A stretch of 64,000 bases of DNA, from sequence record MW883059, one strand, 5' to 3'. Both the position numbers and the translations under genes were made by a program. The notes under the pieces were generated by a model. That model was not told the origin of the DNA and searched no databases. It saw only the letters and a program-made list of their open reading frames with translations. Source of the DNA: Escherichia phage vB_EcoM_SYGD1. The stretch's first letter is position 1, and every line of letters begins with the position of its first letter. Below are positions 30,457 to 55,547 of the stretch, one piece after another.

Positions 30457-30481
30457 TACCCTATCAACTAAGGAGAATAAA

Positions 30482-37912: not shown

Positions 37913-39500
<1,588 letters not shown>

Positions 39501-39503
39501 GCT

Positions 39504-39557
39504 GTTTACAAGTCCCTCGTGTTGTGTTATAGTAGACTTACTGACATAACATGAGGA
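39504..39557 (+). promoter_or_regulatory. early promoter cassette, copy A
   Basis: GTTTAC 39504-39509, TATAGT 39528-39533, GAGGA Shine-Dalgarno; 53/54 identical to 53108-53161. Confidence 0.6.
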
Positions 39558-39564
39558 CTTTATG

Positions 39565-40068: not shown

Positions 40069-40412
40069 GTAATTTTACAGCTGGATTGCTATTACTTGTA
40101 ATAGCATTTGGCGGAACATCTATTATTTTAAAAAATAAGGTAGAAAGATTAGAAACATCGGTTACTGAAATTACAAAAACGGCCAATGAAAACGCTTTAG
40201 CATTAGATAATTTGCGAATTCAGTATAATTATATTGATGCGATGAATAATAAAAATCGTGAGGCAATTGCTGCTATTGAGCGTGAAAATGAAAAACTGCG
40301 CAAAGATGCAAAGAAGGCGGATGTGGTGGCTCATAAGCCAGGATTGGTTGAAAAACAAATCAACAACTCCTTCAACAAGTTCGCAGAAGACATCCAGGAC
40401 CTTTCTAAATGA
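40059..40412 (+). CDS. membrane-anchored coiled-coil protein 117 aa
   Basis: N-terminal transmembrane helix, charged helical remainder. Confidence 0.5.
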   Translation: MHVSNFTAGLLLLVIAFGGTSIILKNKVERLETSVTEITKTANENALALDNLRIQYNYIDAMNNKNREAIAAIERENEKLRKDAKKADVVAHKPGLVEKQINNSFNKFAEDIQDLSK

Positions 40413-40708
40413 TTAAACTATCAGCAGTAATATTATCTATTGGTCTTCTAGTTGGTTGTTCGACAAAGCCTCTAGAAGTAAAGAAAGAAACAGTTCATCC
40501 TAAATGGCCAGTACAAATAAAGTCATATGATGAAGCTAAACTATCCTGGCAAGTTAAAGTTATTGATGGTAAAGCTTGGGTCGGTATGCCATTTGAAGAT
40601 TCCCAGGAATTTCGTATTTGGCTTAATGATGTAAAACGATATGTACATGACCAAAAAACTATGATATGTTATTATCGTCAAGAGCTAAAAGAGGATAAAT
40701 GTAAATGA
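40409..40708 (+). CDS. putative lipoprotein 99 aa
   Basis: Signal peptide with lipobox LVGC. Confidence 0.5.
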   Translation: MIKLSAVILSIGLLVGCSTKPLEVKKETVHPKWPVQIKSYDEAKLSWQVKVIDGKAWVGMPFEDSQEFRIWLNDVKRYVHDQKTMICYYRQELKEDKCK

Positions 40709-40931
40709 TTTCATGGCATCAATTTGAACATCTCAAAGGATTGATTTATGAATCCGAGATGGCTGCAATGATTTATGGACGCCAGATTCAGCGGTTAGAA
40801 TCTTTACCTCCAACTAATGATGTTTTATTAGCTCAATCTCGGGCTAATCTTAAAAATGAATATCAAAATAAGTGGGGTAAAGCATCTAAAGACCTGCATG
40901 ATTATATTCAATCATTGGTTGAGAAAAATAA

Positions 40932-40935
<4 letters not shown>
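40705..40935 (+). CDS. hypothetical protein 76 aa
   Basis: ATGA-coupled ORF. Confidence 0.5.
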
Positions 40936-42328
<1,393 letters not shown>

Positions 42329-42336
<8 letters not shown>

Positions 42337-42529
42337 CACAGAAAAGATTTATCAACTTTGTGATAAAATTGAAAAAGAAAAGAAATATCTATTTTGTTTA
42401 TGGCCTATTGTTGATGGAAGAATAGACTTAGATATTCTTGATTATGAAACAGAAGACATAGTAGATGGTTCAACTTTTGATAATGCGTTGGATGTTATTA
42501 ATTGGCTTGAAGAAAATTATGTGGGGTGA
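42329..42529 (+). CDS. hypothetical protein 66 aa
   Basis: ORF. Confidence 0.45.
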
Positions 42530-42807
42530 ATATGTTTCCGACTTATTCTAAAATCGTAGAAGTAGTGTTTAGTCAAATTATCGCTAATAATATGTTTGAA
42601 AAGATTGATAACGCAGCCGAGCTTCGAATTCATGCTCAAGTGACTCATGTATTGAACACTTTGCTTCCAGACCAGGTGGATTCTATTGCAATTACGCTGT
42701 ATCCGGGTTCCGCGCATATCATTGTCGTATTTGGTCTTGATGCTGAGCTAGTCATCAAAGGCGATATTCGCTTTGAATCACAGACATCAGAATTCAAAGC
42801 AATTTAA
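42526..42807 (+). CDS. hypothetical protein 93 aa
   Basis: ORF. Confidence 0.45.
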   Translation: MNMFPTYSKIVEVVFSQIIANNMFEKIDNAAELRIHAQVTHVLNTLLPDQVDSIAITLYPGSAHIIVVFGLDAELVIKGDIRFESQTSEFKAI

Positions 42808-42809
42808 TG

Positions 42810-42839
42810 GTTTACTTTATGGTAGAGTTGTGATATTAT
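42810..42839 (+). promoter_or_regulatory. T4 early-type promoter with 8-bp inverted repeat around the -10
   Basis: GTTTAC 42810-42815; TGGTAGAG 42820-42827 and CTCTACCA 42842-42849 flank TATTAT. Confidence 0.5.
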
Positions 42840-42869
42840 AGCTCTACCAAAACAAATGAGGAAAACAAA

Positions 42870-43106
42870 ATGCTAAGTGAAAAACCAATTACTGTTAAAG
42901 AATTCCAAGAAAAAGTTAAACTATTTGCTCAGGAATTGGTAAATAAGGTTTCTGAACGATTTCCAGAAACATCGGTTCGTGTTATTACCGAAACTCCTCG
43001 TTCAGTATTAGTAATTGTGAATCCAGGTGATGGTGACCAAATAACACATCTCAAATTGGATTTTGATGGATTAGTTGAAGCACAAAGGGTGTATGGCGTA
43101 CTATGA
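42870..43106 (+). CDS. hypothetical protein 78 aa
   Basis: ORF with Shine-Dalgarno. Confidence 0.5.
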   Translation: MLSEKPITVKEFQEKVKLFAQELVNKVSERFPETSVRVITETPRSVLVIVNPGDGDQITHLKLDFDGLVEAQRVYGVL

Positions 43107-43441
43107 TGAATTTAACTGATATAATTGATAATTGTCTTGAAAATGATACTGGCGATCATAGAGCGCTTGATTCTGAAACAGCACAGTTCATTAGAATAAC
43201 TTTAATGAATGATACTCTAGTGAATAGTATTCATCCTTCTGTGTATGATGCTATTATTGTGACGAAGTATCCAGTTGAGCTTCACAAAAAGATGGCTGGC
43301 GCAATTTTTATTGATAAGAAAAACCGCTTTAAAGATGGGCAGAATATAATTAGTTCTGTTATTAAAAGTATAACTAAACTTCGTCACGAAATTTATCGTG
43401 TTGAAACTGCTAAATCTGCTTATCTGGTGATTATGAAATGA
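43103..43441 (+). CDS. hypothetical protein 112 aa
   Basis: ORF. Confidence 0.5.
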   Translation: MMNLTDIIDNCLENDTGDHRALDSETAQFIRITLMNDTLVNSIHPSVYDAIIVTKYPVELHKKMAGAIFIDKKNRFKDGQNIISSVIKSITKLRHEIYRVETAKSAYLVIMK

Positions 43442-44019
43442 AAGCGAGTACAGTACTTCAAATTGCATATTTAGTATCACAAGAATCAAAATGTTGCTCC
43501 TGGAAGGTAGGAGCAGTAATTGAAAAGAATGGACGTATTATTTCTACTGGATATAACGGCTCACCTGCTGGGGGTGTGAATTGCTGCGATTATGCTGCTG
43601 AGCAAGGTTGGTTGCTGAATAAGCCTAAACATACTATCATTCAAGGTCATAAGCCTGAATGTGTATCGTTTGGTTCAACTGATCGTTTTGTCTTGGCGAA
43701 AGAACACCGTAGCGCTCACTCTGAATGGTCGTCTAAAAATGAAATTCATGCTGAACTAAATGCGATTTTGTTTGCTGCACGAAACGGTTCTTCAATTGAA
43801 GGTGCTACTATGTATGTAACACTTTCTCCTTGCCCAGATTGTGCAAAAGCGATAGCTCAATCTGGTATTAAAAAGCTGGTTTATTGCGAAACATACGATA
43901 AAAATAAACCTGGCTGGGATGATATTCTGCGAAATGCAGGTATTGAAGTGTTCAATGTTCCTAAGAAAAACTTGAATAAGTTAAACTGGGAAAATATCAA
44001 CGAATTCTGTGGTGAATAA
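43438..44019 (+). CDS. cd: dCMP deaminase (193 aa)
   Basis: HAELNAI...SPCPDCAK zinc-binding deaminase motifs; exact T4 length. Confidence 0.9.
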   Translation: MKASTVLQIAYLVSQESKCCSWKVGAVIEKNGRIISTGYNGSPAGGVNCCDYAAEQGWLLNKPKHTIIQGHKPECVSFGSTDRFVLAKEHRSAHSEWSSKNEIHAELNAILFAARNGSSIEGATMYVTLSPCPDCAKAIAQSGIKKLVYCETYDKNKPGWDDILRNAGIEVFNVPKKNLNKLNWENINEFCGE

Positions 44020-44255
44020 TGAAATTTCGTTTGGTACAACTCACAGCAATTAGTTCTTATTCTAATGAGAACATTTCATTTGCTGTAGAGTATAAGAAAT
44101 ATTTTTTCTCTAAATGGAAACAGTATTATAAGTCAGAATGGGTTTGTATTGATAGGCCGTATAGTTGGAAATCTGATTTAGAAAAATGCCAAAAGTTGCT
44201 TTCCACTCTTAAAGAACGTGGAACAACTCATATTAAAACTGTAATAGGTAAATAA
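44019..44255 (+). CDS. hypothetical protein 78 aa
   Basis: ORF. Confidence 0.45.
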   Translation: MKFRLVQLTAISSYSNENISFAVEYKKYFFSKWKQYYKSEWVCIDRPYSWKSDLEKCQKLLSTLKERGTTHIKTVIGK

Positions 44256-44564
44256 ATGAAACTGACAACTGAACAGAAAGTAGCAATTCGTGAAATTTTG
44301 AAAACTAAATTGTCCATGGGTATTTCAAACGTGGTTTTTGAAAAGTCTGATGGTACTATTCGTACTATGAAAGGCACCCGTGATGCTGACTTTATGCCAA
44401 CTATGCAAACCGGTAAATTGACTGAATCTACTCGGAAAGAATCTACTGATATGATTCCGATATTTGATGTTGAGCTTGGTGCATGGCGAGGTTTTTCTAT
44501 TGACAAATTGATTTCTGTTAATGGTATGAAAGTTGAGCATTTGCTTCAATTTATTGGTAAATAA
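44256..44564 (+). CDS. hypothetical protein 102 aa
   Basis: ORF. Confidence 0.45.
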   Translation: MKLTTEQKVAIREILKTKLSMGISNVVFEKSDGTIRTMKGTRDADFMPTMQTGKLTESTRKESTDMIPIFDVELGAWRGFSIDKLISVNGMKVEHLLQFIGK

Positions 44565-44620
44565 ATGCTTTAAGAATTATTTGTTATTATTAATTCATCT
44601 GTTAACAAAAAGGAAAAACG

Positions 44621-44956
44621 ATGTCTGAAGTACAACAGCTACCAATTCGTGCTGTAGGTGAATATGTTATTTTAGTTTCTGAACCTGCACAAGCCGGTGA
44701 TGAAGAAGTTACAGAATCAGGACTTATTATCGGTAAACGTGTTCAAGGTGAAGTTCCTGAACTGTGTGTAATTCACTCTGTCGGTCCTGATGTTCCTGAA
44801 GGTTTTTGTGAAGTTGGTGATTTGACTTCTCTTCCAGTTGGTCAAATTCGAAACGTTCCGCATCCTTTTGTAGCTCTGGGTCTTAAGCAGCCAAAAGAAA
44901 TTAAACAAAAATTCGTTACCTGTCATTATAAAGCTATTCCGTGTCTTTATAAGTGA
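44621..44956 (+). CDS. 31: co-chaperonin gp31 (GroES analogue, 111 aa)
   Basis: Recognisable T4 gp31 sequence and length. Confidence 0.93.
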
Positions 44957-45103
44957 TATAAATAATAATATGAATTGGGTGTCGGAATAATAAGTTAACC
45001 GAACAATTCTACGTGGTAGTCTACAACTGAGAGATCTGTCGAAAGAAGATGAAATTCAGAAGAACGTGACTACCGAGTTTTAATCTCTAACGAGAATTTT
45101 TAA

Positions 45104-45352
45104 ATGATTAAACAATTACAACACGCTCTTGAACTGCAACGAAACGCATGGAATAATGGTCACGAAAACTATGGCGCATCTATTGATGTTGAAGCCGAAG
45201 CTCTTGAAATCCTGCGTTATTTCAAACATCTGAATCCTGCTCAAACTGCATTAGCTGCTGAGCTTCAGGAAAAAGATGAACTTAAATATGCTAAGCCTCT
45301 GGCTTCTGCTGCACGAAAAGCAGTTCGTCACTTTGTGGTAACACTGAAGTAA
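45104..45352 (+). CDS. rIII: lysis inhibition accessory protein rIII (82 aa)
   Basis: Recognisable T4 rIII sequence and length. Confidence 0.9.
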   Translation: MIKQLQHALELQRNAWNNGHENYGASIDVEAEALEILRYFKHLNPAQTALAAELQEKDELKYAKPLASAARKAVRHFVVTLK

Positions 45353-45597
45353 TTTATTGGAGATTCACTGCCTTAGTGTGAGCTAAAATCGAGGAGCCGT
45401 CGAACTGTCTGATTAATGATTTGCGAATCATTATAGTTTTAAGACCCCGGCAGTTTTACGGTGTACCTCTTGAATGTGAATGATGACGGGTTTATGGTTA
45501 TCCTGGTCGTTAAATATCAAAAAACCTATGTTCCCCTTGAGGGCTTGCGCAGGCAATGCCAATAAGTCCTGCATTTTCATTTAAAAGAGAATTTATA

Positions 45598-45774
45598 ATG
45601 GCAAAACAAGCTAAAGCAAAGAAAGCAGTTGAAAAGAAAGTTGGTGATTCTAAACGCGCTGGTTACAAGCGTGGGTCGAACTCTCGTATCAATCAAACTG
45701 TTGAGAAGATCATGCGCCGAGCACGTGCGGTTCTTCGAGATGATGCTTCTCGTTTTGGTAAGCAGAAAGCATAA
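45598..45774 (+). CDS. small basic protein 58 aa
   Basis: MAKQAKAKKAVEKKVGDSKRAGYKRG...; followed by strong terminator. Confidence 0.5.
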   Translation: MAKQAKAKKAVEKKVGDSKRAGYKRGSNSRINQTVEKIMRRARAVLRDDASRFGKQKA

Positions 45775-45777
45775 GTT

Positions 45778-45808
45778 GAGGACTCCTTCGGGAGTCCTTT
45801 TTTATTTT
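45778..45808 (+). terminator. rho-independent terminator
   Basis: GAGGACTCC-TTCG-GGAGTCC followed by TTTTTTATTTT. Confidence 0.85.
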
Positions 45809-45827
45809 CCAAAGATTGCACAAAGTT

Positions 45828-45860
45828 GTTTACAGTACGGTTCCTTTGTGATAGTATTAT
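45828..45860 (+). promoter_or_regulatory. T4 early-type promoter; downstream arm of a 7-bp inverted repeat overlaps the Shine-Dalgarno
   Basis: GTTTAC 45828-45833; TCCTTTG 45842-45848 pairs with CAAAGGA 45871-45877. Confidence 0.5.
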
Positions 45861-45884
45861 CTTACACAAACAAAGGAGAATAAA

Positions 45885-46217
45885 ATGAAAACGATTAATC
45901 TGAACGCTGCAGTTAAAACTAAATGCTTCAACGGTAAATATGATGAAACTATGTGGTTCTTAATGGCAGTTGAAGGTGATATTATTGAAGTAGAAACAAC
46001 AGAAGGTATGGGAACAGATTTCACCTTTACAATTCAAGTTCATAATTTCTTTACTGGTTGGATTTATGAATTGAATACAGTAATCGTTGGAAAAATTGAA
46101 CAAAATGAATTAGGCGAATGGTATTATGTTACAGCTCGCCAACGTGCCGAACACTTAATTGAGAAGATGAAAAAAGTTGGTAAACTTGACATGCAACATT
46201 GGAAAGTAGTAAAATAA
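45885..46217 (+). CDS. hypothetical protein 110 aa
   Basis: AAGGAGAATAAAATG start context. Confidence 0.5.
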   Translation: MKTINLNAAVKTKCFNGKYDETMWFLMAVEGDIIEVETTEGMGTDFTFTIQVHNFFTGWIYELNTVIVGKIEQNELGEWYYVTARQRAEHLIEKMKKVGKLDMQHWKVVK

Positions 46218-46219
46218 TT

Positions 46220-46249
46220 GTTTACTTTGGTACAGGATATGATATTATA
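46220..46249 (+). promoter_or_regulatory. T4 early-type promoter with perfect 8-bp inverted repeat around the -10
   Basis: GTTTAC 46220-46225; GGTACAGG 46229-46236 and CCTGTACC 46252-46259 flank TATTAT. Confidence 0.55.
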
Positions 46250-46284
46250 TACCTGTACCGCAATTAAACATCTTGGAGAATAAA

Positions 46285-46650
46285 ATGAACTACATCAACT
46301 TTGAACGTAAATATGTTTCTACCGGTATTGCAGGTTCTATTGATACTATCTGCCTTTGGAAACATCAAAATGGATCAGTATGCGAAATTGAACAGTATAT
46401 GACTCCTAACTACGTTTATATGCGATTTGAAAATGGCATCACGGTTTCAATCACGAAAGAAGGTTCTTCTTTCAAAATCGCATTAGATGATGATTTCCGT
46501 CAACGTGATTTAGGGACTCATCCTTGCTGGAATGGCGTCAATCGTAAGCTTCTGGTTAAAACTTGGATTCGTCATATTCTGAGTAACAGAGCTAAACCTG
46601 AGCATCTTGAAGCAATCTTTGATGTAGTTCTTAACGAATTTGATATTTAA
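46285..46650 (+). CDS. hypothetical protein 121 aa (ORF track starts at TTG 46273)
   Basis: TTGGAGAATAAAATG start context. Confidence 0.5.
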   Translation: MNYINFERKYVSTGIAGSIDTICLWKHQNGSVCEIEQYMTPNYVYMRFENGITVSITKEGSSFKIALDDDFRQRDLGTHPCWNGVNRKLLVKTWIRHILSNRAKPEHLEAIFDVVLNEFDI

Positions 46651-46690
46651 AATAAAACAGGGGCTTCGGCCCCTTACTGAGGAAAATACT

Positions 46691-46978
46691 ATGTTTATGA
46701 CTACTTATTTTGATACCCGCAAAAATTTCTGTGAAGTGGTTTTCTCTAAGGCGCCTAAAGACCTTCCTGCTCATTTGCAGCCTACCAGTGAATCGATTAA
46801 AAACTACGTTAATGTAGTCTGCTCTTTAGAGTTCCGTACTGTAAATGGCCGTGATACTTTAGCTATCACTAAACTCAATCGTGAAATTGACATTGACCCT
46901 TCAATTGCGAGTGAAATTAATATTTCTGACATTGGTGGTGGTAATGTTAAATCGCACGGATTTCAGATGAGGTTCTAA
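46691..46978 (+). CDS. hypothetical protein 95 aa
   Basis: GAGGAAAATACTATG start context after a hairpin at 46659-46674. Confidence 0.5.
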   Translation: MFMTTYFDTRKNFCEVVFSKAPKDLPAHLQPTSESIKNYVNVVCSLEFRTVNGRDTLAITKLNREIDIDPSIASEINISDIGGGNVKSHGFQMRF

Positions 46979-47175
46979 TGAAATTCTTTTTGGGTCAAAC
47001 TGTTGAATTAAAGGGAGTCGGTATACCTGGATTAATTTCTAAGGTTTTGCCTGCATTTAAATGGAGAGACGTTCAAATAAAAGAGGCTTATATTGTTTCC
47101 TGGGTAGATGGAAATGAAGACCTTCGTATGGATGATGAATTATCTCCTATCTATGGATTAAAGGAATTAGTATGA
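46978..47175 (+). CDS. hypothetical protein 65 aa
   Basis: ATGA-coupled ORF. Confidence 0.45.
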   Translation: MKFFLGQTVELKGVGIPGLISKVLPAFKWRDVQIKEAYIVSWVDGNEDLRMDDELSPIYGLKELV

Positions 47176-47378
47176 ATATAATTAATAAGATTTTTGGAAT
47201 TCAGTACATTAAGGTCACATATAAAGTAACGTATAAAGGTCCGTATACCGATGAACATGAAGAACCACAAGTTAAGTCTATTATATTAGAAAAGGACCCT
47301 AACTGGCCAGTTGAATTTCGTCTTCCTTGCTATGGTCATTGGGCTGATGTTGAAATTATAAGTATTGAAAATGTCTGA
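47172..47378 (+). CDS. hypothetical protein 68 aa
   Basis: ATGA-coupled ORF. Confidence 0.45.
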   Translation: MNIINKIFGIQYIKVTYKVTYKGPYTDEHEEPQVKSIILEKDPNWPVEFRLPCYGHWADVEIISIENV

Positions 47379-47829
47379 GCTAGAGATAAGAAGCAATTTT
47401 AGATGGCCATCATGTGCATTAAGCAATTTCGCCCAATGGCCTTTCGTTATGGATGGTATCCAATTTGGAGGTCTCGAAGGATTCCTCCAAGGGTGTAAGG
47501 TGAAAAATGTTGAACAGCAACGTCGTATATTTGGGTTATCCGGGATTGCCGCCCAACAAGCTGGACGAGCTTATGCTAGAGCTCAGGACCGTGGGACCCT
47601 CTTCTGGCTTGGAGTTCCGTTTTCAAGATACTCCCCGGCGTGGAAAGAATTATACACAAATGCATATTTTGAAGCAGCGATCCAAAACAGGGGCTTTCGT
47701 GATGCATTACAAGCCTCGAAAGGAAAAGTTTTGAAGCACAGCATAGCTAGTGGTCTAACAAAAGATGATACAATACTAACCGAAGCTGAATTTATTGATG
47801 TGTTAAACCTACTAAGAGACTCTCTATGA
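47365..47829 (+). CDS. conserved protein 154 aa, possibly NADAR/YbiA-like (30.3-like)
   Basis: Position upstream of DNA ligase; family assignment from memory only. Confidence 0.4.
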   Translation: MKMSELEIRSNFRWPSCALSNFAQWPFVMDGIQFGGLEGFLQGCKVKNVEQQRRIFGLSGIAAQQAGRAYARAQDRGTLFWLGVPFSRYSPAWKELYTNAYFEAAIQNRGFRDALQASKGKVLKHSIASGLTKDDTILTEAEFIDVLNLLRDSL

Positions 47830-48689
47830 AGCCTACTATTTTGACTGATATTGATGGAGTATGTTTAAGCTGGCAATCAGGTCTTCCTTATTTTGCTCAG
47901 AAATATAATCTTCCGTTAGAACATATTTTAAAAATGATCCAAGATGAGAAATTTATTTCTCCAGGTAAACTCTTTAATTGTGATGAAGAACTTGGCGTCA
48001 AGTTAATTGAAAAATACAATCGTTCAGATTTTATTCGTTACTTGTCTCCGTATAAAGATGCCCTGTGTGTAATTAACAAATTAAAAGAAGATTATAATTT
48101 TGTAGCTGTTACAGCATTGGGTGATTCTATTGACGCTCTGTTGAATCGTCAATTTAATTTGAATGCTCTTTTTCCTGGTGCCTTCTCAGAAGTAATGATG
48201 TGTGGTCATGATTCTTCAAAAGAAGAGTTATTCAAAAAGGCAAAAGAGAAATATAACGTAATTTGTTATATTGACGATCTCGCTCACCACTGCGACCACG
48301 CGAGTGAAATATTAAATGTTCCGGTTTATTGGATGGCTCGAGGAGAGCGTGACAATATTCCAAAAACTGCGCAGCGAGTTTATACATGGAATGATGTAGA
48401 AAATAAGCTTTTTTCGCCGAAGGAAAATAAAGAAAGTTTTGATAGTGAAAAAGCTATAAAAGATGTAATTGAGAAGATGGTTAAAAACGATTCTTTTCGT
48501 TGGAACACTACCTGGAGAACTCCTGGATTTAATCCTTATAATCCATATTATACGCATCCATATAATCCATATTATACACACCCGTATCATATGAATCCAT
48601 TCCATACGTGGAGTTATACTAAGCCTGGCGACGCAGGGTATTTTAATAGACTTACTAGTGGTGATAATATTTTCCAAGGAGCATTCTAA
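47826..48689 (+). CDS. HAD-superfamily hydrolase-like protein with C-terminal Pro/Tyr-rich tandem repeat (287 aa)
   Basis: N-terminal LTDIDGVCLSW (DxDG motif I); C-terminal NPYNPYYTHPYNPYYTHPYHMNPFH. Confidence 0.5.
   Translation: MKPTILTDIDGVCLSWQSGLPYFAQKYNLPLEHILKMIQDEKFISPGKLFNCDEELGVKLIEKYNRSDFIRYLSPYKDALCVINKLKEDYNFVAVTALGDSIDALLNRQFNLNALFPGAFSEVMMCGHDSSKEELFKKAKEKYNVICYIDDLAHHCDHASEILNVPVYWMARGERDNIPKTAQRVYTWNDVENKLFSPKENKESFDSEKAIKDVIEKMVKNDSFRWNTTWRTPGFNPYNPYYTHPYNPYYTHPYHMNPFHTWSYTKPGDAGYFNRLTSGDNIFQGAF
48531..48610 (+). repeat. 24-nt tandem direct repeat within coding sequence
   Basis: AATCCATATTATACGCATCCATAT / AATCCATATTATACACACCCGTAT adjacent copies. Confidence 0.7.
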
Positions 48690-48958
48690 TGTTTGTTGTT
48701 CACACTATTTATGAAAATGAAGGTAATACTACACGTGATTACGGTCACGTAAATCAATTTTTTAGATGCAATCCAGAATTCCGAGCTCAAAAAGACGAAC
48801 GAATTTTTAAAAAATGTGTAGAGCAAGGTTTCATTTACGTCAAGCACTGGATGCAAGGAAATAAAGTTAGAACTACATATCATAGGTCTTTAACTGAGCT
48901 TAATGATGAATTGATTTATAATAGAGCTGTAAACCAAACCTTGAAGGATGAGCAATGA
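48689..48958 (+). CDS. hypothetical protein 89 aa
   Basis: ORF coupled to ligase gene. Confidence 0.5.
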   Translation: MFVVHTIYENEGNTTRDYGHVNQFFRCNPEFRAQKDERIFKKCVEQGFIYVKHWMQGNKVRTTYHRSLTELNDELIYNRAVNQTLKDEQ

Positions 48959-50415
48959 TTCTTAAAATTCTGAATGAAATAGCATCTATTGGTTCAACTA
49001 AGCAGAAGCAAGCAATTCTTGAAAAGAATAAAGATAATGAATTGCTTAAACGAGTATATCGTCTGACTTATTCTCGTGGGTTACAGTATTATATCAAGAA
49101 ATGGCCTAAACCTGGTATTGCTACCCAGAGTTTTGGAATGCTGACCATTACCGATATGCTTGACTTCATTGAATTCACGTTAGCTACTCGGAAATTGACT
49201 GGAAATGCTGCAATTGAGGAATTAACTGGATATATCACTGATGGTAAAAAGGATGATGTTGAAGTTTTGCGTCGAGTGATGATGCGAGACCTTGAATGCG
49301 GTGCTTCAGTATCTATTGCAAACAAAGTTTGGCCAGGTTTAATTCCTGAACAACCTCAAATGCTAGCAAGTTCTTATGATGAAAAAGGCATTAGTAAGAA
49401 TATCAAATTTCCAGCCTTTGCACAGTTAAAAGCAGATGGAGCTCGGTGTTTTGCTGAAGTTCGAGGTGATGAATTAGATGATGTTCGTCTTTTATCGCGA
49501 GCTGGTAATGAATATCTAGGATTAGATCTTCTTAAGGAAGAATTAATCAAAATGACTGCTGAAGCCCGCCAGATTCATCCAGAAGGCGTGTTAATTGATG
49601 GCGAATTGGTATACCATGAGCAAGTTAAAAAGGAACCAGAAGGCCTAGATTTTCTTTTTGACGCTCCTGAAAATAGTAAAGTTAAAGACTTCGCAGAAGT
49701 AGCTGAATCTCGTACTGCTTCTAATGGAATCGCTAATAAATCTTTAAAGGGAACTATTTCAGAAAAAGAAGCCAAATGCATGAAGTTTCAGGTCTGGGAT
49801 TATGTTCCGTTAGTAGAAATATACGGTCTTCCGGCGTTTCGTTTAAAATATGATGTACGTTTTTCTAAACTAGAACAAATGACATCAGGATATGATAAAG
49901 TAATTTTAATTGAAAACCAGGTAGTAAATAACCTAGATGAAGCTAAGGTAATTTATAAAAAATATATTGACCAAGGTCTTGAAGGTATTATTCTCAAAAA
50001 TACCGATGGATTGTGGGAAAATGCTCGTTCAAAAAATCTCTATAAATTTAAAGAAGTAATTGATGTTGATTTAAAAATTGTAGGAATTTATCCTCACCGT
50101 AAAGACCCTACTAAAGCGGGTGGATTTATTCTTGAATCAGAGTGTGGAAAAATTAAAGTAAATGCAGGTTCAGGCTTAAAAGATAAAGCTGGTGTAAAAT
50201 CACATGAACTTGACCGTACTCGCATTATGGAAAACCAAAATTATTATATTGGAAAAATTCTAGAGTGCGAATGCAACGGTTGGTTAAAATCTGATGGCCG
50301 CACTGATTACGTTAAATTATTTCTTCCGATTGCGATTCGTTTACGTGAAGATAAAACTAAAGCTAATACATTCGAGGATGTATTTGGTGATTTTCATGAG
50401 GTAACTGGTCTATGA
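48955..50415 (+). CDS. 30: ATP-dependent DNA ligase (486 aa)
   Basis: Recognisable T4 DNA ligase sequence; adenylation site KADGAR. Confidence 0.95.
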   Translation: MILKILNEIASIGSTKQKQAILEKNKDNELLKRVYRLTYSRGLQYYIKKWPKPGIATQSFGMLTITDMLDFIEFTLATRKLTGNAAIEELTGYITDGKKDDVEVLRRVMMRDLECGASVSIANKVWPGLIPEQPQMLASSYDEKGISKNIKFPAFAQLKADGARCFAEVRGDELDDVRLLSRAGNEYLGLDLLKEELIKMTAEARQIHPEGVLIDGELVYHEQVKKEPEGLDFLFDAPENSKVKDFAEVAESRTASNGIANKSLKGTISEKEAKCMKFQVWDYVPLVEIYGLPAFRLKYDVRFSKLEQMTSGYDKVILIENQVVNNLDEAKVIYKKYIDQGLEGIILKNTDGLWENARSKNLYKFKEVIDVDLKIVGIYPHRKDPTKAGGFILESECGKIKVNAGSGLKDKAGVKSHELDRTRIMENQNYYIGKILECECNGWLKSDGRTDYVKLFLPIAIRLREDKTKANTFEDVFGDFHEVTGL

Positions 50416-50600
50416 AAGCTTACTTAGAAACAATTGTCGTGGCTCAAAAAGAAGGTGGAGATGTTTCTACTTCGGTATCACAAGTCATTCTCGAATTTGT
50501 AGATGCATATGCTTATAATAAATTTACAGAAACATTTGATGCCTACGAAAAAGGTCCAAAGTTTGAAATATATCGTACTCTCTTACCACTAGATTATTAA
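50412..50600 (+). CDS. hypothetical protein 62 aa
   Basis: ATGA-coupled ORF followed by hairpin. Confidence 0.45.
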   Translation: MKAYLETIVVAQKEGGDVSTSVSQVILEFVDAYAYNKFTETFDAYEKGPKFEIYRTLLPLDY

Positions 50601-50625
50601 AGGCCTTCGGGCCTTTAATTTTATA
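50599..50625 (+). terminator. hairpin/terminator
   Basis: AAAGGCC-TTCG-GGCCTTT followed by AATTTTAT. Confidence 0.55.
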
Positions 50626-50652
50626 AATAGAATAAACACTAGAGAGGATATG

Positions 50653-52746
50653 ATGGAACTTATTACAGAATTATTTGACGAAGATACTACTCTTCCGATT
50701 ACAAACTTAAATCCAAAGAAGAAAATACCGCAAATTTTTTCAGTTCATGTTGATGACGCAATTGAACAACCAGGCTTTCGTTTATGTACCTATACATCTG
50801 GAGGTGATACTAATCGCGATTTAAAAATGGGCGATAAAATGATGCATATTGTTCCTTTTACATTAACTGCTAAAGGTTCAATTGCTAAATTAAAAGGTCT
50901 CGGTCCAAGCCCAATTAATTACATCAATTCAGTTTTTACTGTTGCAATGCAGACGATGCGTCAGTATAAAATTGATGCATGTATGCTCCGTATTCTTAAG
51001 TCTAAAACTGCTGGTCAAGCTCGACAAATTCAAGTTATTGCTGATAGACTTATCCGTAGTCGTTCAGGTGGCAGATACGTCCTTCTTAAGGAACTCTGGG
51101 ATTACGATAAAAAGTATGCATATATTCTTATACATCGCAAAAATGTATCACTAGAAGACATTCCAGGAGTTCCGGAAATTAGTACAGAGCTCTTTACTAA
51201 AGTTGAATCGAAGGTCGGCGATGTTTATATCAATAAAGATACCGGAGCTCAAGTAACTAAAAATGAGGCAATTGCAGCATCTATTGCGCAAGAAAACGAT
51301 AAACGTTCTGACCAAGCTGTAATCGTTAAAGTTAAAATTTCCCGTAGAGCAATTGCACAAAGTCAGTCATTGGAATCTTCTAGATTTGAAAGTGAATTAT
51401 TCCAAAAGTATGAATCTACCGCAGCTAATTTCAATAAACCTGCTACCGCTCCTTTAATTCCCGAAGCGGAAGAAATGAAACTTGGAATTAATTCATTAGC
51501 TTCTAAAACCAAGGCAGCAAAAATTATTGCCGAAGGAACCGCAAATGAACTTCATTATGATTATAAATTCTTTTCAAAAAGTGAGGTTGATGAAGTTTCT
51601 GAAAAGATTAAAGATGTAATTCTTAATGCGATTAAAAATGAACCAACTACTTCAATAAAATGTTTAGAGAAATACGCAGCAGCCGTTAATCAACTCTTTG
51701 AAGAATATAAAGATAATTGGCTTGATAAACATAATAAAACTCGTAAAGGGCAGTCAGATGAAGTCTGGGAAGAAATAACTAAAAATTCCTGGAACGCAGC
51801 AAAAACTAAATTCCTCAAAAGAATGATTTATAGTTTTTCTGGAATTGGTGCAGGTCCAATGATTGATATTACTATTGCCCGTGATGGTTCTAAATATACT
51901 CCATCACAAAAGCGTGGCATTAGAGAGTATTGTGGTTCAGGATATACTGACATCAATAATCTTCTTTTAGGACGCTACAATCCAGAACGATATGATGTAA
52001 TGAGTGAAAAAGAAATTGAATCTGCTATAAATAACTTAGATTCAGCTTTTGAAAATGGTGACCGTATACCAGAAGGCATTACAGTTTATCGTGCTCAAAG
52101 TATGACTGCTCCTATATACGAAGCACTAGTTAAAAATAAAGTGTTCTATTTCAGAAATTTTGTATCTACTTCTTTAACTCCTATCATTTTTGGACGTTTT
52201 GGAATTACACATGCTGGTATCGGTCTTTTAGAACCAGAAGCTCGTAATGAATTAACAGTTGATAAAAATGAAGAAGGAATAACTATTAATCCAAACGAAA
52301 TAAGAGCGTATAAAGAAAATCCTGAATACGTTAAAGTTCAAATAGGATGGGCAATTGATGGAGCTCATAAAGTTAATGTTGTATATCCAGGAAGTCTCGG
52401 AATAGCAACTGAAGCTGAAGTTATTTTACCACGCGGATTGATGGTCAAAGTTAATAAAATAACTGATGCTTCTAATAATGACGGAACAACATCTAATAAT
52501 ACAAAACTCATTCAAGCTGAAGTTATGACTACGGAAGAACTCACCGAATCAGTAATTTATGACGGTGACCGTCTAATGGAAACTGGTGAAGTAGTTGCAA
52601 TGACAGATGATATTGAAATAGAAGACAGAGTTGACTTTGCATCATTTGTTTCATCAAATGTTAAACAGAAAGCAGAATCATCTCTCGGAATTATTGCGTC
52701 TTGCATAGATATTACAAACATGCCTTACAAGTTCGTTCAAGGATAA
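50653..52746 (+). CDS. alt: ADP-ribosyltransferase Alt (697 aa)
   Basis: Begins MELITELFDEDTTLPITNLNPKKKIPQIF as T4 Alt; ART-like R / S-T-S motifs (VYRAQS, FVSTSL). Confidence 0.9.
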   Translation: MELITELFDEDTTLPITNLNPKKKIPQIFSVHVDDAIEQPGFRLCTYTSGGDTNRDLKMGDKMMHIVPFTLTAKGSIAKLKGLGPSPINYINSVFTVAMQTMRQYKIDACMLRILKSKTAGQARQIQVIADRLIRSRSGGRYVLLKELWDYDKKYAYILIHRKNVSLEDIPGVPEISTELFTKVESKVGDVYINKDTGAQVTKNEAIAASIAQENDKRSDQAVIVKVKISRRAIAQSQSLESSRFESELFQKYESTAANFNKPATAPLIPEAEEMKLGINSLASKTKAAKIIAEGTANELHYDYKFFSKSEVDEVSEKIKDVILNAIKNEPTTSIKCLEKYAAAVNQLFEEYKDNWLDKHNKTRKGQSDEVWEEITKNSWNAAKTKFLKRMIYSFSGIGAGPMIDITIARDGSKYTPSQKRGIREYCGSGYTDINNLLLGRYNPERYDVMSEKEIESAINNLDSAFENGDRIPEGITVYRAQSMTAPIYEALVKNKVFYFRNFVSTSLTPIIFGRFGITHAGIGLLEPEARNELTVDKNEEGITINPNEIRAYKENPEYVKVQIGWAIDGAHKVNVVYPGSLGIATEAEVILPRGLMVKVNKITDASNNDGTTSNNTKLIQAEVMTTEELTESVIYDGDRLMETGEVVAMTDDIEIEDRVDFASFVSSNVKQKAESSLGIIASCIDITNMPYKFVQG

Positions 52747-52749
52747 ATC

Positions 52750-53136
52750 ATGGAACTTATTACAGAATTATTTGACGGCGCTTCGGCGCCGGTTGTTAAC
52801 TTAAATCCTAAGCATAAAATACCTCAAATTTTTGCTATTCAAGCAGGTGAAGAAAGCGTGCTTCCTGGATTTAGATTTTGTACATACACCTCTGGCGGTG
52901 ATACAAATAAAAACGTTAAGCCAGGCGATAAAATGATGCATATCGTAATGATAGGTGTTAATGAGAAACTATCATTAGTTAAACTTAAAAACTTGGGTGG
53001 AAATCCAATTGGTGTCATTAATGCGGTTTTTGATACTGCTCTTCAAACAATGAAACAGTATAAAATCGACGCATGCCTATTACGCGTACTAAAAAGTTCA
53101 AAATGTAGTTTACAAGTCCCTCGTGTTGTGTTATAG
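52750..53136 (+). CDS. truncated paralog of the Alt N-terminal domain (128 aa)
   Basis: Residues 1-116 align with the Alt N-terminus; last 8 codons are encoded by the promoter cassette. Confidence 0.6.
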   Translation: MELITELFDGASAPVVNLNPKHKIPQIFAIQAGEESVLPGFRFCTYTSGGDTNKNVKPGDKMMHIVMIGVNEKLSLVKLKNLGGNPIGVINAVFDTALQTMKQYKIDACLLRVLKSSKCSLQVPRVVL

Positions 53137-53161
53137 TAGATTTACTGACATAACATGAGGA
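53108..53161 (+). promoter_or_regulatory. early promoter cassette, copy B
   Basis: 53/54 nt identical to 39504-39557. Confidence 0.6.
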
Positions 53162-53168
53162 ACATAAA

Positions 53169-53459
53169 ATGAAATCTTCTTTGCGCTTTTTAGGTCAAGA
53201 ACTCGTAGTTGAAGGCGTTATTCCTGCTGATAACGCTTTTAATGAAGCTGTTTACGATGAATTTATCAAAATTTTTGGAACAGATAAAAAGTTCGGAATT
53301 TTTCCTTCTGAAAATTTTTCAAAGCCAGAACAGACTGAAAGCATTTTCCAAGGTGTAGTAACAGGTAAATTTGAGTCAGAAGCTCCGGTAAAAATTGAAG
53401 TTTATATTGAAGACAGTTTAGTTGCTTCAGTTGCTGCTTTTATTTCATTCCGTAAATAA
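53169..53459 (+). CDS. hypothetical protein 96 aa
   Basis: ORF downstream of cassette B, followed by bidirectional hairpin. Confidence 0.5.
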   Translation: MKSSLRFLGQELVVEGVIPADNAFNEAVYDEFIKIFGTDKKFGIFPSENFSKPEQTESIFQGVVTGKFESEAPVKIEVYIEDSLVASVAAFISFRK

Positions 53460-53462
53460 AAA

Positions 53463-53488
53463 TATGGGGACCTTTCGGTCCCCATTGT
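53463..53488. terminator. bidirectional hairpin terminator between convergent early and late units
   Basis: GGGGACC-TTTC-GGTCCCC; U-rich flank on the minus-strand side. Confidence 0.65.
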
Positions 53489-54453
53489 TATATTGCTCCT
53501 AATATTTTACTTTGCGAATTGACAATTCCTGTCATAGTATTAATGTTTGAAATGCTTCCTGCAGTTCCTCCTAATCTACTAAGTCGTGAAAGCGAATTAG
53601 ATAGTCCAGTAACACCTCCGCTATTTCCGAGAACGCTTTGAATGCCATTTATAGTAGCAGATTCAAGCCACTCAAGCGCAGCTTGTCTATCAACCGCTCC
53701 AGCCTGCATGACTCTATACGCAAAAGTAACATCAAATGTAGTTATTTGGTTATCTCCATCGTATGATAACTCAGGAGCACTCACTGACACTGGAATGCAT
53801 CCGGTGAACATCACAGCAGTATGAGGTAATCCATTACGAGCATGAAGATTAACCTGAATGTCTGCCTCGACATCTTGTGGCAAAGCGCGTAATCCAGTTA
53901 CTGGGTCTTGAACAGCGTTAACCCAGTCTTGCATTGCACGATAATTACATGCTTCTGAATCCATCCTAAATGAAATAACCAAAGGGTCTAATTCTCTCCC
54001 AGTTATACGAATATTAGGAGAATTATAGTTCCAGTCAGTTTCATAGGATAATCTATTCTCTGGCATTTTTACAGAATATATCATCAATCCAGATGAGTTA
54101 TATGCCATGTTAAAGAAGTCAATTAAATATGTACCAACTGTAAATGAGCCTAATAAACTTTGAACTGTACGCTGACTCATGGCACCAATAAGATATTTAC
54201 TAACCCCTGATTTTCTTATCAGTTTTTGTGTGCCAGCAGTAATTAGCGTAGTAATTCCCTGATTAATATCGCCTTGAGTTAATCCTAACCAATCTGAATT
54301 TAGGCCCAAGTTATTATAAGAAAAGTTGCTAATTGAACTTATCAACGAAGAGCTTTTAGTTGATGGAGTTGTCGCAAAAACGCAGCTAAACATATTATTA
54401 CGCTGGAAATCTGCGTTTATTGCTTGATTATTAAATTCCTCTAAAGAATACAT
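53488..54453 (-). CDS. 54: baseplate tail tube initiator gp54
   Basis: 321 aa vs T4 320 aa; synteny 51-27-28-29-48-54. Confidence 0.88.
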   Translation of the reverse strand: MYSLEEFNNQAINADFQRNNMFSCVFATTPSTKSSSLISSISNFSYNNLGLNSDWLGLTQGDINQGITTLITAGTQKLIRKSGVSKYLIGAMSQRTVQSLLGSFTVGTYLIDFFNMAYNSSGLMIYSVKMPENRLSYETDWNYNSPNIRITGRELDPLVISFRMDSEACNYRAMQDWVNAVQDPVTGLRALPQDVEADIQVNLHARNGLPHTAVMFTGCIPVSVSAPELSYDGDNQITTFDVTFAYRVMQAGAVDRQAALEWLESATINGIQSVLGNSGGVTGLSNSLSRLSRLGGTAGSISNINTMTGIVNSQSKILGAI

Positions 54454-55547
54454 TAAAAAGTCCCCGCATATAAAGAAGCACGGTTTAACGTGATAATTTC
54501 TCTCATAGTAATCTCGAGAGTAAATGTACTAGGGAGGTTTGGAGCAATAGCTAATCCGTTAAAGTTACCATTAGGTGTTTTATCAAATCTAATGCTCTGT
54601 ATTTGGCATGGACCAAATATTTCCGTTTTTCCATCAAACTTAGATGTTGCGCCAAAGTTTTTCACCATCCAAATTGTCGGGTTTGAAACTACTAGAACGT
54701 TAGTTAAGCTCGATGTCATTTTCTCAAATAGTGTTTTATTTTTAGCTGCGTCTTCCGGAGATAAAGGTTCAATTAACGTAGAACGATACCAATCATCTAA
54801 ATACCCCTTTATTTCAGCAGCATATTGAGATTTACCCGTTTCACCATAAGAAAAATAGTTAAAATATTGATAGATATTAATAATAGCCATTAAATCTTCT
54901 GTGGAACGTGGAGTCAAATCCCATGTAAACACTTTAGTTCTATTCTCAGCGCCACCATACATACTTCTGGCTGTCGTATAAATCTGTTCATTATTATCAG
55001 CCATTATACCTTGTGTTATACTTTCCAGTGCCCCAAATACTGCGGTTGAAGCAATATTACTTAGCACACCAGTAGCAGTACCTCCGCCTCTGCTGATAAG
55101 ACTTTCTTGAACATCATTAAATCTATGTGATGATGTATCAACATCAGATTTAGATCTTGGTAAAAGAATATTTGCAACAGGGGCTTTACTTATTGTTCCT
55201 GAATTATTATCTGATATTAATCCATTTGACAGTTTTGATACTGTATTACTGATAGTGTTTCTGGCTGTACGTAAAATACTCGAAGATGAAGAAGAGTAGT
55301 TAGATCTCATCGATCTAAGACTTCCAGAATCCCTAGATGACATATTGTATGCAGTAAATAATAATCCATTCTTATATAGATCTGTTACCTGGAAGTCCCC
55401 TGTAGTGTCATTACCACTAGCACGCCCAGTTGGAAACTGGGCAGTGTATGTTTTAGTTACTACTTCTGATTTAGTACTCTGTCCGGCTGAAATTTTCTCA
55501 CCGGACTTTTTAATTAAATCAGCAGTTATTTCTTTAACAATTGCCAT
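54453..55547 (-). CDS. 48: baseplate tail tube cap gp48 (364 aa)
   Basis: Exact T4 length; synteny. Confidence 0.88.
   Translation of the reverse strand: MAIVKEITADLIKKSGEKISAGQSTKSEVVTKTYTAQFPTGRASGNDTTGDFQVTDLYKNGLLFTAYNMSSRDSGSLRSMRSNYSSSSSSILRTARNTISNTVSKLSNGLISDNNSGTISKAPVANILLPRSKSDVDTSSHRFNDVQESLISRGGGTATGVLSNIASTAVFGALESITQGIMADNNEQIYTTARSMYGGAENRTKVFTWDLTPRSTEDLMAIINIYQYFNYFSYGETGKSQYAAEIKGYLDDWYRSTLIEPLSPEDAAKNKTLFEKMTSSLTNVLVVSNPTIWMVKNFGATSKFDGKTEIFGPCQIQSIRFDKTPNGNFNGLAIAPNLPSTFTLEITMREIITLNRASLYAGTF

Follow-up and report, generated by a model that had tools for sequence, protein, structure and literature searches.

A probable deletion remnant of a second alt-like gene beside a predicted early promoter twinned with that of alc in a T4-like phage

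We consider it likely that the 128-residue open reading frame (ORF) that follows alt in Escherichia phage vB_EcoM_SYGD1 is what a deletion left of a second alt-like gene, and that the 54-nt cassette in which it ends is a resident early promoter and the twin, probably alc-derived, of a second copy; for this promoter we propose the promoter-in-hairpin function described below. The analysis covers a stretch of 64,000 nt (record MW883059; hereafter the window), which belongs to a Tequatrovirus, that is, a T4-like phage. The locus is ordinary overall and most of what it holds is known biology. Features are collected in Table 1; gene names around the cassette copy at alc (copy A) were taken from the annotation of T4 and its relatives.

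Table 1. Positions in the window of the features discussed in the text.
Feature	Position	Strand	Remarks
Cassette copy A, predicted alc early promoter and leader	39504..39557	+	rnlA stop at 39498-39500; alc start at 39562/39565
Copy A promoter core	39505..39533	+	10/12 consensus matches, TG present; +1 near 39540 predicted from standard -10 spacing
Copy A sense-RNA hairpin (predicted)	39510..39560	+	5' arm, spacer and -10; 3' arm, leader including the Shine-Dalgarno GAGGA 39553-39557; -24.4 kcal/mol, z -3.8 to -5.8
Late-promoter motif TATAAATA 5' of alt	50622..50629	+	Proposed source of late read-through RNA crossing copy B
alt, full-length Alt ADP-ribosyltransferase	50650..52746	+	698-aa ORF; likely start 50653; Pfam PF03496, E = 1.5e-37
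128-aa remnant of second alt-like gene	52750..53136	+	Corresponds to T4 alt.-1 plus alt.-2 minus T4's 1-nt frameshift
Deletion junction, sole kept copy of the 9-bp repeat CTAAAAAGT	53089..53097	+	10 nt 5' of the cassette
Final TTC AAA ATG TAG (four codons) of the full-length paralog, out of frame in the remnant	53097..53108	+	Native TAG 53106-53108 overlaps the G of -35 GTTTAC
Cassette copy B, predicted alt.-3 early promoter and leader	53108..53161	+	Annotated 'promoter' in phage Lutter
Copy B promoter core	53109..53137	+	Stop TAG of the remnant ORF (53134-53136) inside the -10; putative +1 near 53144
Copy B sense-RNA hairpin (predicted)	53117..53161	+	Predicted to sequester the Shine-Dalgarno GAGGA 53157-53161; -23.0 kcal/mol, z -5.4 to -5.9
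alt.-3 homolog	53169..53459	+	96 aa, DUF5498; gene served by cassette copy B
Bidirectional terminator hairpin	53464..53485	.	Bounds the alt to alt.-3 transcription unit on the gene 54 side

Results

The two copies of the cassette match at 53 of 54 positions, the exception being a C/T difference at cassette position 34, and no further copy was found in the window at up to three mismatches, nor any in 100 shuffles. In both copies a consensus scan identified a -35 TTTACA, a 17-nt spacer, a TGn and a -10 TATAGT (10/12 consensus matches), followed by GAGGA. The preliminary description had reported both the recurrence with a single mismatch and the presence of -35, -10 and Shine-Dalgarno (SD) elements in each copy, and was correct on these points. 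Judged by their sequence, both copies are sigma-70-type early promoters, with putative activity and +1 sites. Upstream, the -40 to -60 region of copy B is A-rich coding DNA (CTAAAAAGTTCAAAATGTA), and an AT-rich block of copy A is located at about -58 to -81, farther off than the usual -40 to -60. A RegB site in the leader was considered and rejected, since GAGGA contains no GGAG.

The resemblance of the copies was compared to that between the 14 matches to GTTTAC-N18-TAnnnT that the window has on its + strand; 12 of these are promoter-like. The copy pair is 98% identical, against 72% for the next best pair and 48% (sd 10%) on average. This difference rules out the independent convergence of two promoters on the consensus, and upholds the earlier suggestion that the two 54-mers represent a shared module.

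The population analysis was performed on GenBank phage records, an exact-pattern scan of IMG/VR having returned six loci only. The cassette occupies 997 places in 499 records, that is, two per genome. Within Dhakavirus WG01 and within RB69, the alc and alt.-3 promoter loci are only 71-74% alike; the alt.-3 promoter of VR26 is 62% like the cassette, and its alc locus, which is organised differently, is uninformative for the alc promoter. Since twinning is absent in these three outgroup genera, one of the two loci was probably overwritten in the Tequatrovirus ancestor. The three outgroup genomes suggest that overwriting went from alc to alt.-3, and it may have taken place in the genus ancestor by a short-patch conversion for which the -35 and SD motifs common to both loci would have served as anchors, with some later exchange.

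Among 18 genomes, we found no fixed difference between copies A and B, and six of the eight variant states at A recur at B (hypergeometric P = 6e-6 when all 162 possible changes are counted, and 0.004-0.011 for smaller universes of 54 and 45 changes), although these shared variants could be mutational hot spots. The A-B distance within a genome is 2.5 and is not significantly smaller than the 2.67 obtained by random cross-genome pairing (permutation P = 0.14); ongoing within-genome conversion is thus unsupported. These distances, as well as the invariance of 40 of the 54 cassette positions across 20 variants, are in line with a single ancient duplication or conversion, after which purifying selection on promoter, leader and hairpin would have kept the copies alike without continuing exchange. 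We see this as a real possibility, and give it somewhat less than an even chance. It is at odds with the identity of six of eight A variant states with those at B, and with the lack of any fixed A/B difference in the face of a polymorphism (1.7 and 3.1 differences per genome pair at the two loci) that is close to what the 3-5% divergence of the surroundings predicts for 54 nt.

In sense RNA, both copies are predicted to fold into a hairpin with a helix of 19-22 bp, the base of whose stem is exactly the SD. In a read-through context of 257 nt, pair probabilities in the hairpin core are approximately 1.0 and the probability that the SD GAGG is unpaired is approximately 0; the antisense strand of the cassettes folds to only -15.4 and -17.4 kcal/mol. 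Hairpins were also found at several other early promoters of the window (30427, 42810), where they are centred on the -10 and exclude the SD. In cassette numbering, the 5' arm of the hairpin covers 10-31 and includes the -10 at 25-30, and +1 is predicted near 37. The 5' arm thus contains the promoter and lies upstream of the predicted +1, so that the module's own transcript should lack it.

This geometry would have two consequences. In RNA that arrives from upstream, namely middle rnlA and late alt transcripts, the spacer would pair with the SD and mask it, while RNA begun at the module's own promoter would have no 5' arm and be open to translation. As the internal promoter of the cassette is early, translation is predicted to be restricted to early, self-initiated RNA, and not to late RNA. 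For RNA begun at copy B itself, the predicted structure still has the SD partly paired to codons further 3', in a local fold that is weak and not significant. Regarding late RNA, the TATAAATA motif occurs in the alt region at positions 50622 and 52026 only, and a terminator scan of 52500-53600 identified no + strand terminator between alt and alt.-3.

All 20 natural variants of the cassette keep a fold of -15.8 to -25.1 kcal/mol. In the covariation analysis of the hairpin, 97.6% of cells were paired and a single compensatory change was seen; 19-44 of 500 shuffles reached the observed scores, and natural substitutions were not significantly milder in their effect on the fold than random ones (ddG test, P = 0.10-0.19). 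The alc promoter of WG01 displays an analogous hairpin between spacer and SD with a different sequence; a significant hairpin is absent at the alt.-3 promoters of WG01, RB69 and VR26 and at the alc promoter of RB69. A search of 39300-53600 with Rfam at the gathering threshold returned no known RNA family.

It is conceivable, if unlikely in our view, that the hairpin acts otherwise, either as a 3'-end stabiliser or processing site (for RNase III, for example) for the rnlA and alt mRNAs, or as a DNA palindrome that affects promoter opening or recombination. RNase III substrates span a size range that covers a helix of 19-22 bp, and the -10-centred hairpins without SD at the other early promoters would fit such a role. 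Nevertheless, there is no U-tract 3' of the stem, whose base coincides exactly with the SD, and three G-U pairs give the sense RNA a far higher stability than that of the antisense strand, which argues against a role at the DNA level.

Residues 1-116 of the 128-residue ORF are 62% identical to residues 2-118 of Alt (E = 3e-49), and codons 121-128 (LQVPRVVL), together with the stop within TATAGT, come from copy B. This agrees with what had been described initially, that is, a truncated Alt paralog fused to cassette-derived codons, with a tail translated from promoter DNA. It had also been claimed that copy B starts exactly where the resemblance to Alt ends; the cassette is indeed close by, but the resemblance ends at codon 116 (53097), 10 nt before 53108. 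No Pfam domain was found in the ORF, and it has no ART catalytic domain (PF03496), which matches residues 379-628 of Alt and residues 416-620 of the paralog of phage PP01.

The product of the ORF could in principle be a functional small protein kept in some phages, such as a head-targeted decoy of the Alt N-terminal domain. Both the window and phage N2 have an intact ORF, with AGGA 8 nt 5' of its ATG, and it encodes the 116 N-terminal residues that resemble Alt. However, seven of the nine deletion-bearing loci examined have an extra frameshift at codon 55, and two of those seven also stop at codon 6, which argues that the remnant is a decaying pseudogene; its C-terminal 12 residues, moreover, are accidental, and it matches no Pfam domain. 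We therefore hold a functional protein to be improbable.

At the site of the ORF, approximately 80% of sequenced relatives carry a full-length gene for a 685-aa Alt-like ADP-ribosyltransferase, in which the ART domain is present and identity to Alt is 42% over the entire length. This second gene is annotated as 'Alt-like RNA polymerase ADP-ribosyltransferase' in hundreds of genomes, including T6, RB32 and PP01. One common deletion of 1,699 bp (3n+1) inside it is present in the window, in T4 and in about 90 other records, and the gap is visible when the window is aligned with PP01 and N2; among the 499 GenBank records, the junction is found in 90 and the interior of the paralog in about 402-407. 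In full-length genes of the RB9, ESh29 and Elenatom type, exact 9-bp direct repeats (CTAAAAAGT) are located 1,699 bp apart. At the junction one repeat copy is kept and there are no filler bases, as in a microhomology deletion, and all deletion loci compared share an identical junction and a linked SNP (AAAATCGAC) in the flank. The final 11 nt of the gene, including its stop, are retained out of frame.

These data suggest an ancestor with two tandem full-length alt genes, in which a deletion between the CTAAAAAGT repeats, most likely by slipped mispairing or short-homology recombination, would have joined codon 116 of the second gene to its final codons. Since the deletion is of 3n+1 length, the frame is shifted and the native TAG bypassed, so that reading extends for 28 nt to the TAG in the -10 box of the next promoter. 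T4 alt.-1/alt.-2 would be the same remnant after one further 1-nt deletion. An unrelated conserved C-terminus for the ORF in reference T-even genomes had been named as an outcome that would refute a rearrangement at a mobile module; this has come about in part, since in these genomes the ORF continues into a conserved C-terminus, which is Alt-like.

T4 annotation reads alt.-1/alt.-2 differently, as the product of an old duplication that took in no more than the first part of alt and was at no time complete in this lineage, the 685-aa form being an 'insertion in alt.-2' in the wording used for T6; this is stated in the GenBank notes of T4 and T6 and by Nolan et al. 2006 (PMC1524935). We regard it as very improbable, since the remnant retains the final codons and stop of the full-length gene 3' of the junction, the missing 1,699 bp are bounded by exact 9-bp repeats, a single one of which is left, and the full-length form is the majority state, with a complete ART domain. 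In addition, the alt gene immediately 5' of alt.-3 in WG01 is full-length and shares the KFKM* end, which is fused to GTTTAC there.

In about 400 related genomes, the same cassette lies directly after the stop of the full-length 685-aa gene, from which we conclude on sequence grounds that the cassette is the resident early promoter of alt.-3, and was not inserted. That a mobile cassette inserted or recombined here and truncated the Alt paralog, with its breakpoint at the cassette edge, as the preliminary description had it, is scarcely credible: although the cassette is a true duplicated module, the ORF does end within it, and cassettes of the PeSL type are documented recombination sites in T4-type phages (PMC2839356, PMC4122927), the cassette holds the same position beside the intact gene, in outgroups too the alt stop codon is fused to a GTTTAC promoter, and the breakpoint is the 9-bp repeat inside the alt paralog, 10 nt 5' of the cassette, the 11 nt in between being the original 3' end of the gene.

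Discussion

T4 alt.-1/alt.-2 can thus be read as what is left of a once complete second Alt-like ADP-ribosyltransferase, which most phages of the T4 genus still have. The breakpoint is defined to the base, which corrects the annotation wording of 'partial duplication' and 'insertion in alt.-2'. T4 is without an enzyme that its relatives have, and this matters for work on phage ADP-ribosylation and RNAylation.

A more far-reaching reading is that the cassette is a self-insulating early unit, which masks the ribosome-binding site in RNA from upstream, reached alt.-3 as a copy of the alc unit in the Tequatrovirus ancestor and is still exchanging sequence between the two loci; taken as a whole, we put this forward tentatively and consider it rather doubtful. 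In deletion-type phages such as T4 and that of the window, the remnant ORF stops at the -10, within the predicted hairpin. On this reading, ribosomes that translate late alt mRNA would open the hairpin, so that alt.-3 would be translated late in coupling with alt. This would shift the timing of alt.-3, a gene in which mutants are known to overcome the CmdTAC defence system. If confirmed, a promoter within a hairpin would extend the classic translational control of T4 from late to early promoters, and would offer a simple reason for the copying of the entire promoter-to-SD block as a unit.

The window ORF and T4 alt.-1/alt.-2 (NP_049810, NP_049809) have the same locus, sequence and deletion junction. 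They differ in that T4 has a 1-nt deletion in an A5 run, whereas the window is without it, so that the remnant reads as a single 128-aa ORF. Deletions between short direct repeats have been described (Albertini et al. 1982, as cited in PMC4122927), and for recombination in T4 short patches of homology are reported to suffice (Singer et al. 1982, as cited in PMC2839356). The window junction is alike, with its exact 9-bp repeats, a single copy left and no filler, and the sole twist is the 3n+1 length, by which the ORF runs into the next promoter.

Early promoters of T4 belong to the UP/-35/TGn/-10 class (Hinton 2010, PMC2988021). Both cassette copies are alike to them in the GTTTACA -35, the 17-nt spacer, the TGn and the TAnnnT -10, but the identity of the copies also covers the spacer and leader, which are normally variable. 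In T4-type phages, the promoter-early stem-loop (PeSL) regulatory cassettes (Arbiol 2010, PMC2839356; Comeau 2014, PMC4122927) have, like the cassette, a strong sigma-70-like early promoter followed by an SD and the ATG of the next ORF. Both are repeated within the genome, and the window copy adjoins an indel in a plastic region, so that exchange between copies is plausible. The cassette, however, has no upstream terminator stem-loop, and its own stem-loop overlaps promoter and SD; on the + strand, no terminator-like site was found upstream of either copy, and the upstream 52-mers fold with z values of -0.78 and +0.74. Furthermore, the neighbouring indel did not cross over at the cassette, its endpoints being the 9-bp repeats inside the alt paralog. 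Genes 30 and 31, which we take to be essential as in T4, lie in the 13.6 kb between the two copies, and excision of a mini-circle between the copies would thus not be viable.

The hairpin itself finds its counterpart in T4 genes e, soc, 49 and I-TevI, whose initiation hairpins have an internal promoter (Uzan & Miller 2010, PMC3014915). In these genes, and by prediction in the cassette, the SD is paired in RNA started upstream and a promoter is contained within the DNA of the 5' strand. The internal promoter is of the late TATAAATA type in e, soc, 49 and I-TevI, while that of the cassette is of the early sigma-70 type. What is new here is thus the cassette hairpin, in which, according to fold modelling and with a predicted function, the design of e, soc, 49 and I-TevI would be built around an early promoter.

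Copies A and B of the cassette

The window is a segment of a Tequatrovirus (T4-genus) genome in which a 54-bp cassette, comprising an early promoter and a Shine-Dalgarno (SD) sequence, is found twice with a single mismatch, as the preliminary description had claimed. Copy A is flanked by rnlA and alc, and the gene order at copy B is 30 (ligase), alt.1, alt, a 128-aa Alt-like ORF and alt.-3, followed by 54, 48 and 29 on the opposite strand. Both copies match the scored promoter pattern TTTACA-17 nt-TGn-TATAGT and terminate at their 3' ends in GAGGA, shortly 5' of the start codon of alc (A) or alt.-3 (B). The + strand of the window has 14 GTTTAC-N18-TAnnnT matches, of which 12 are promoter-like; when all were aligned over the same 54 positions, the A/B pair was 98% identical, versus 72% for the next-best pair and 48% on average, indicating that the repeat is real, lies far beyond promoter consensus, and reflects a shared module rather than independent consensus matches. 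A search of the whole window for further copies with up to 3 mismatches found none, and neither did the same search in 100 shuffles.

Copy B had been interpreted as a rearrangement breakpoint at a mobile regulatory module that truncated an Alt paralog. Comparison of the locus across T-even genomes, which the same description had proposed, places the cassette at exactly the same site in genomes with a full-length paralog, where its first base is also the final base of the paralog's stop. In the outgroups WG01 (Dhakavirus), RB69 (Mosigvirus) and VR26 (Gaprivervirus), a GTTTAC promoter lies at, or a few bases from, the stop codon of the last alt gene. Thus, judging from sequence comparison, copy B is most simply read as the early promoter native to alt.-3, and copy A as its alc counterpart. 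The observed repeat stands and its interpretation holds in part: a shared module and a truncated Alt paralog are supported, a breakpoint at the cassette is not. At the VR26 alc locus, an additional short alc-like ORF precedes alc, and a GGGG...CCCC stem-loop occupies the place where the GTTTAC early promoter would be.

Deletion within the alt paralog

The first 116 residues of the 128-aa ORF are 62% identical to Alt residues 2-118, and its final eight codons and stop do fall within the cassette; the resemblance to Alt, however, does not end exactly at the cassette edge, but at 53097, 10 nt 5' of it. Most of the top database matches to 52000-54500 are split in two pieces over ~4.2 kb, and these phages carry a 2,058-bp gene in place of the 387 bp of the window. 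The product, a 685-aa 'Alt-like RNA polymerase ADP-ribosyltransferase' encoded in PP01, RB9, T6, P8, ZN18 and others, contains a PF03496 domain and is 42% identical to Alt over its whole length. When the window, PP01 and N2 are aligned, a single clean gap appears. In the paralogs of RB9, ESh29 and Elenatom, CTAAAAAGT occurs twice, at codons 114-116 and 13 nt 5' of the stop, with a spacing of 1,699 bp; the window retains one copy, followed by the paralog's original final codons TTC AAA ATG TAG. Since 1,699 is 3n+1, these codons are out of frame; the native TAG, which overlaps the G of GTTTAC, is bypassed, and the ORF stops at the TAG within TATAGT. This is a textbook short-direct-repeat deletion, which gives the truncated paralog a mundane and precisely placed origin.

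All nine deletion loci examined (the window, N2, T4, G8, LDJ77, slur08, Lv5cm, F26 and one IMG/VR contig) share an identical junction and the linked flank variant AAAATCGAC, versus AAAATTGA in full-length genomes, a sequence pattern that indicates one deletion event behind all of them. T4 has also lost one A in an A5 run, and its remnant is consequently split into alt.-1 (61 aa) and alt.-2 (67 aa). This frameshift is common to seven of the nine loci, two of which also carry a stop at codon 6; the remnant is thus decaying, and the window and N2 keep its earliest, still-open state. The locus is present in 499 records of the GenBank phage set, 90 with the deletion junction in one piece and 402-407 with the paralog interior. 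The Elenatom paralog, broken into ORFs of 544 and 140 aa by a 14-nt deletion, is an independent case of decay.

The 128-aa ORF corresponds to T4 alt.-1/alt.-2, so a truncated Alt paralog was already annotated and known. According to the T4 record, alt.-1 and alt.-2 'reflect an old duplication of the first part of gene alt', an account also given by Nolan et al. 2006 (PMC1524935), and the T6 record labels the long form an 'apparent insertion in alt.-2'. The deletion data turn this account round: the ancestral state is the long form, from which the short form arose by deletion. Tandem alt copy number is not constant among Tevenvirinae: WG01 carries three such genes, RB69 and VR26 one each, and Tequatrovirus either two or one together with a remnant. 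The corrected annotation and the point that T4 lacks a second Alt-like enzyme kept by ~80% of its genus are among the most useful outcomes of this analysis.

Origin of the twin promoters

BLAST with the 54-nt cassette returned 997 places in 499 records, or two per genome, with the same number of records and the same organism breakdown as the junction query. What was duplicated is a regulatory block, and the twin promoters that resulted are specific to this lineage and present throughout the genus. In WG01 and in RB69 alike, the genome's own alc and alt.-3 promoters are only 71-74% identical, and the alt.-3 promoters of the three outgroups are 62-73% like the cassette, values that assign the twinning, on sequence grounds, to the Tequatrovirus lineage. 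In WG01 the alc promoter comes slightly nearer to the cassette than the alt.-3 promoter does (76% and 73%) and has the cassette's hairpin design, which is absent from the alt.-3 promoters of all three outgroups; this thin evidence favours copying from alc to alt.-3.

In the 18 genomes compared that have both copies, A-B differences number 0-6 (mean 2.5), and no single position distinguishes every A from every B. Six of the eight variant states at A recur at B (P 6e-6 with 162 equally likely changes; P 0.004-0.011 with 54 or 45 possible changes), which suggests sequence exchange between the loci. Within-genome pairs were not significantly more alike than random pairs in these 18 genomes (P 0.14), and continuing conversion is thus no more than suggested. 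The homology extends from the -35 to the SD, motifs common to most T4 early promoters; the mapped crossovers of promoter-early stem-loop (PeSL) cassettes lie between motifs of this kind (PMC2839356). Copy A has TACAGT as its -10 in 9 of the 18 genomes and copy B has consensus TATAAT in 4, so the twins may differ in strength between phages.

Predicted hairpin and possible role

The sense RNA of the cassette is predicted to fold into a long hairpin (-24.4 kcal/mol for A, -23.0 for B; z -3.8 to -5.9; none of 200 shuffles as stable), in which CCUC of the promoter spacer pairs with GAGG of the SD. Three G-U pairs leave the antisense strand much weaker (-15.4 / -17.4 kcal/mol), which suggests that the hairpin acts in sense RNA. 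When it is folded within 257 nt of read-through RNA, the core pair probability is ~1.0 and GAGG is predicted to be essentially never unpaired. The cassette's own transcript (predicted +1 near cassette position 37) is without the 5' arm, and any structure in its leader is weak and non-significant (z +0.8 to +0.9). All 20 distinct cassette variants fold at -15.8 to -25.1 kcal/mol, but since they are 96% identical they lend the hairpin weak evolutionary support: 97.6% of cells are paired, with one compensatory change (C15-G50 via U-G to U-A), shuffles attained the observed covariation scores in 19-44 of 500 trials, and natural substitutions did not disturb the fold significantly less than random substitutions. 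Rfam has no family at the locus.

Candidate sources of upstream RNA exist for both copies, namely the late TATAAATA before alt and a MotA-box-like middle promoter before rnlA, and no + strand terminator was found before the end of alt.-3 within the scanned 52500-53600. The cassette would restrict translation of alc and alt.-3 to self-initiated early RNA. In deletion-type phages, a ribosome that reaches the end of the remnant ORF, inside the hairpin, would melt the stem, and alt.-3 would thereby be coupled to late alt mRNA. The CmdTAC defence system is evaded by T4 mutants in which alt.-3 is extended at its C-terminus (PMC11618068), and control of alt.-3 expression may therefore matter. The hairpin reading is a cheap hypothesis, open to test, and also among the most useful outcomes.

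At two other early promoters (9487-9548 and 45828-45885) the spacer also pairs with the downstream SD, and the promoter-in-hairpin layout may, from these predictions, be common among T4 early promoters. The tandem PYNPYYTH repeat at the C-terminus of the 30.2 homolog accounts for part of the variation in gene length among relatives (837-864 nt).

Features of the window and of comparison loci (L-numbers)
Feature	Position	Fold	Remark
Cassette copy A	39504-39557
Cassette copy B	53108-53161
128-aa ORF	52750-53136
Retained CTAAAAAGT	53089-53097
Native paralog TAG	53106-53108
Hairpin 5' arm	cassette 10-31	predicted	promoter spacer and part of -10
Hairpin 3' arm	cassette 36-54	predicted	transcribed leader
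Varying -10 bases	cassette 27 (39530 / 53134), 29 (39532 / 53136)		compared across L011-L028
Early promoter	9487-9548	-23.2 kcal/mol, z -5.8	5' of 38-aa hydrophobic ORF
Early promoter	45828-45885	-12.1 kcal/mol, z -2.1	5' of gene 30.8 homolog
Early promoter	30427-30488	-15.2 kcal/mol, z -3.2	hairpin centred on -10, SD not included
Early promoter	42810-42871	-20.8 kcal/mol, z -5.9	hairpin centred on -10, SD not included
MotA-box-like middle promoter	38318-38348		ATGCTTCC then TACTAT
Late TATAAATA	50622-50629		~20 nt upstream of alt
GC-rich terminator hairpin AAAGGCCTTCGGGCCTTT together with TATAAATA directly 3' of it	50598-50629
Bidirectional terminator hairpin	53464-53485		perfect 9-bp stem, between convergent alt.-3 and gene 54
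alt.-3 homolog	53169-53459		full-length DUF5498 protein
30.2 homolog	47826-48689		287 aa
PYNPYYTH repeat	48540-48640
Elenatom paralog	L017 14315-16358
WG01 alt genes	L019 2346-8458
RB69 alt gene	L020 8310-10397
VR26 alt gene	L029 6238-8289
VR26 alc locus	L029 20496-20860		alc-like ORF, stem-loop

Comparison with known systems

The cassette has the sequence features that define a T4 early promoter (PMC2988021). It resembles PeSL cassettes in being a repeated promoter-plus-SD module adjoining an indel, but lacks the upstream terminator stem-loop that defines them, and is not the crossover point of the indel, which is likewise a defining PeSL feature. [quoted passage not shown] The cassette fits this geometry, although its internal promoter is early, whereas those of the four genes are late; its hairpin is thus predicted, by analogy, to add a new case to a control design already known from T4.
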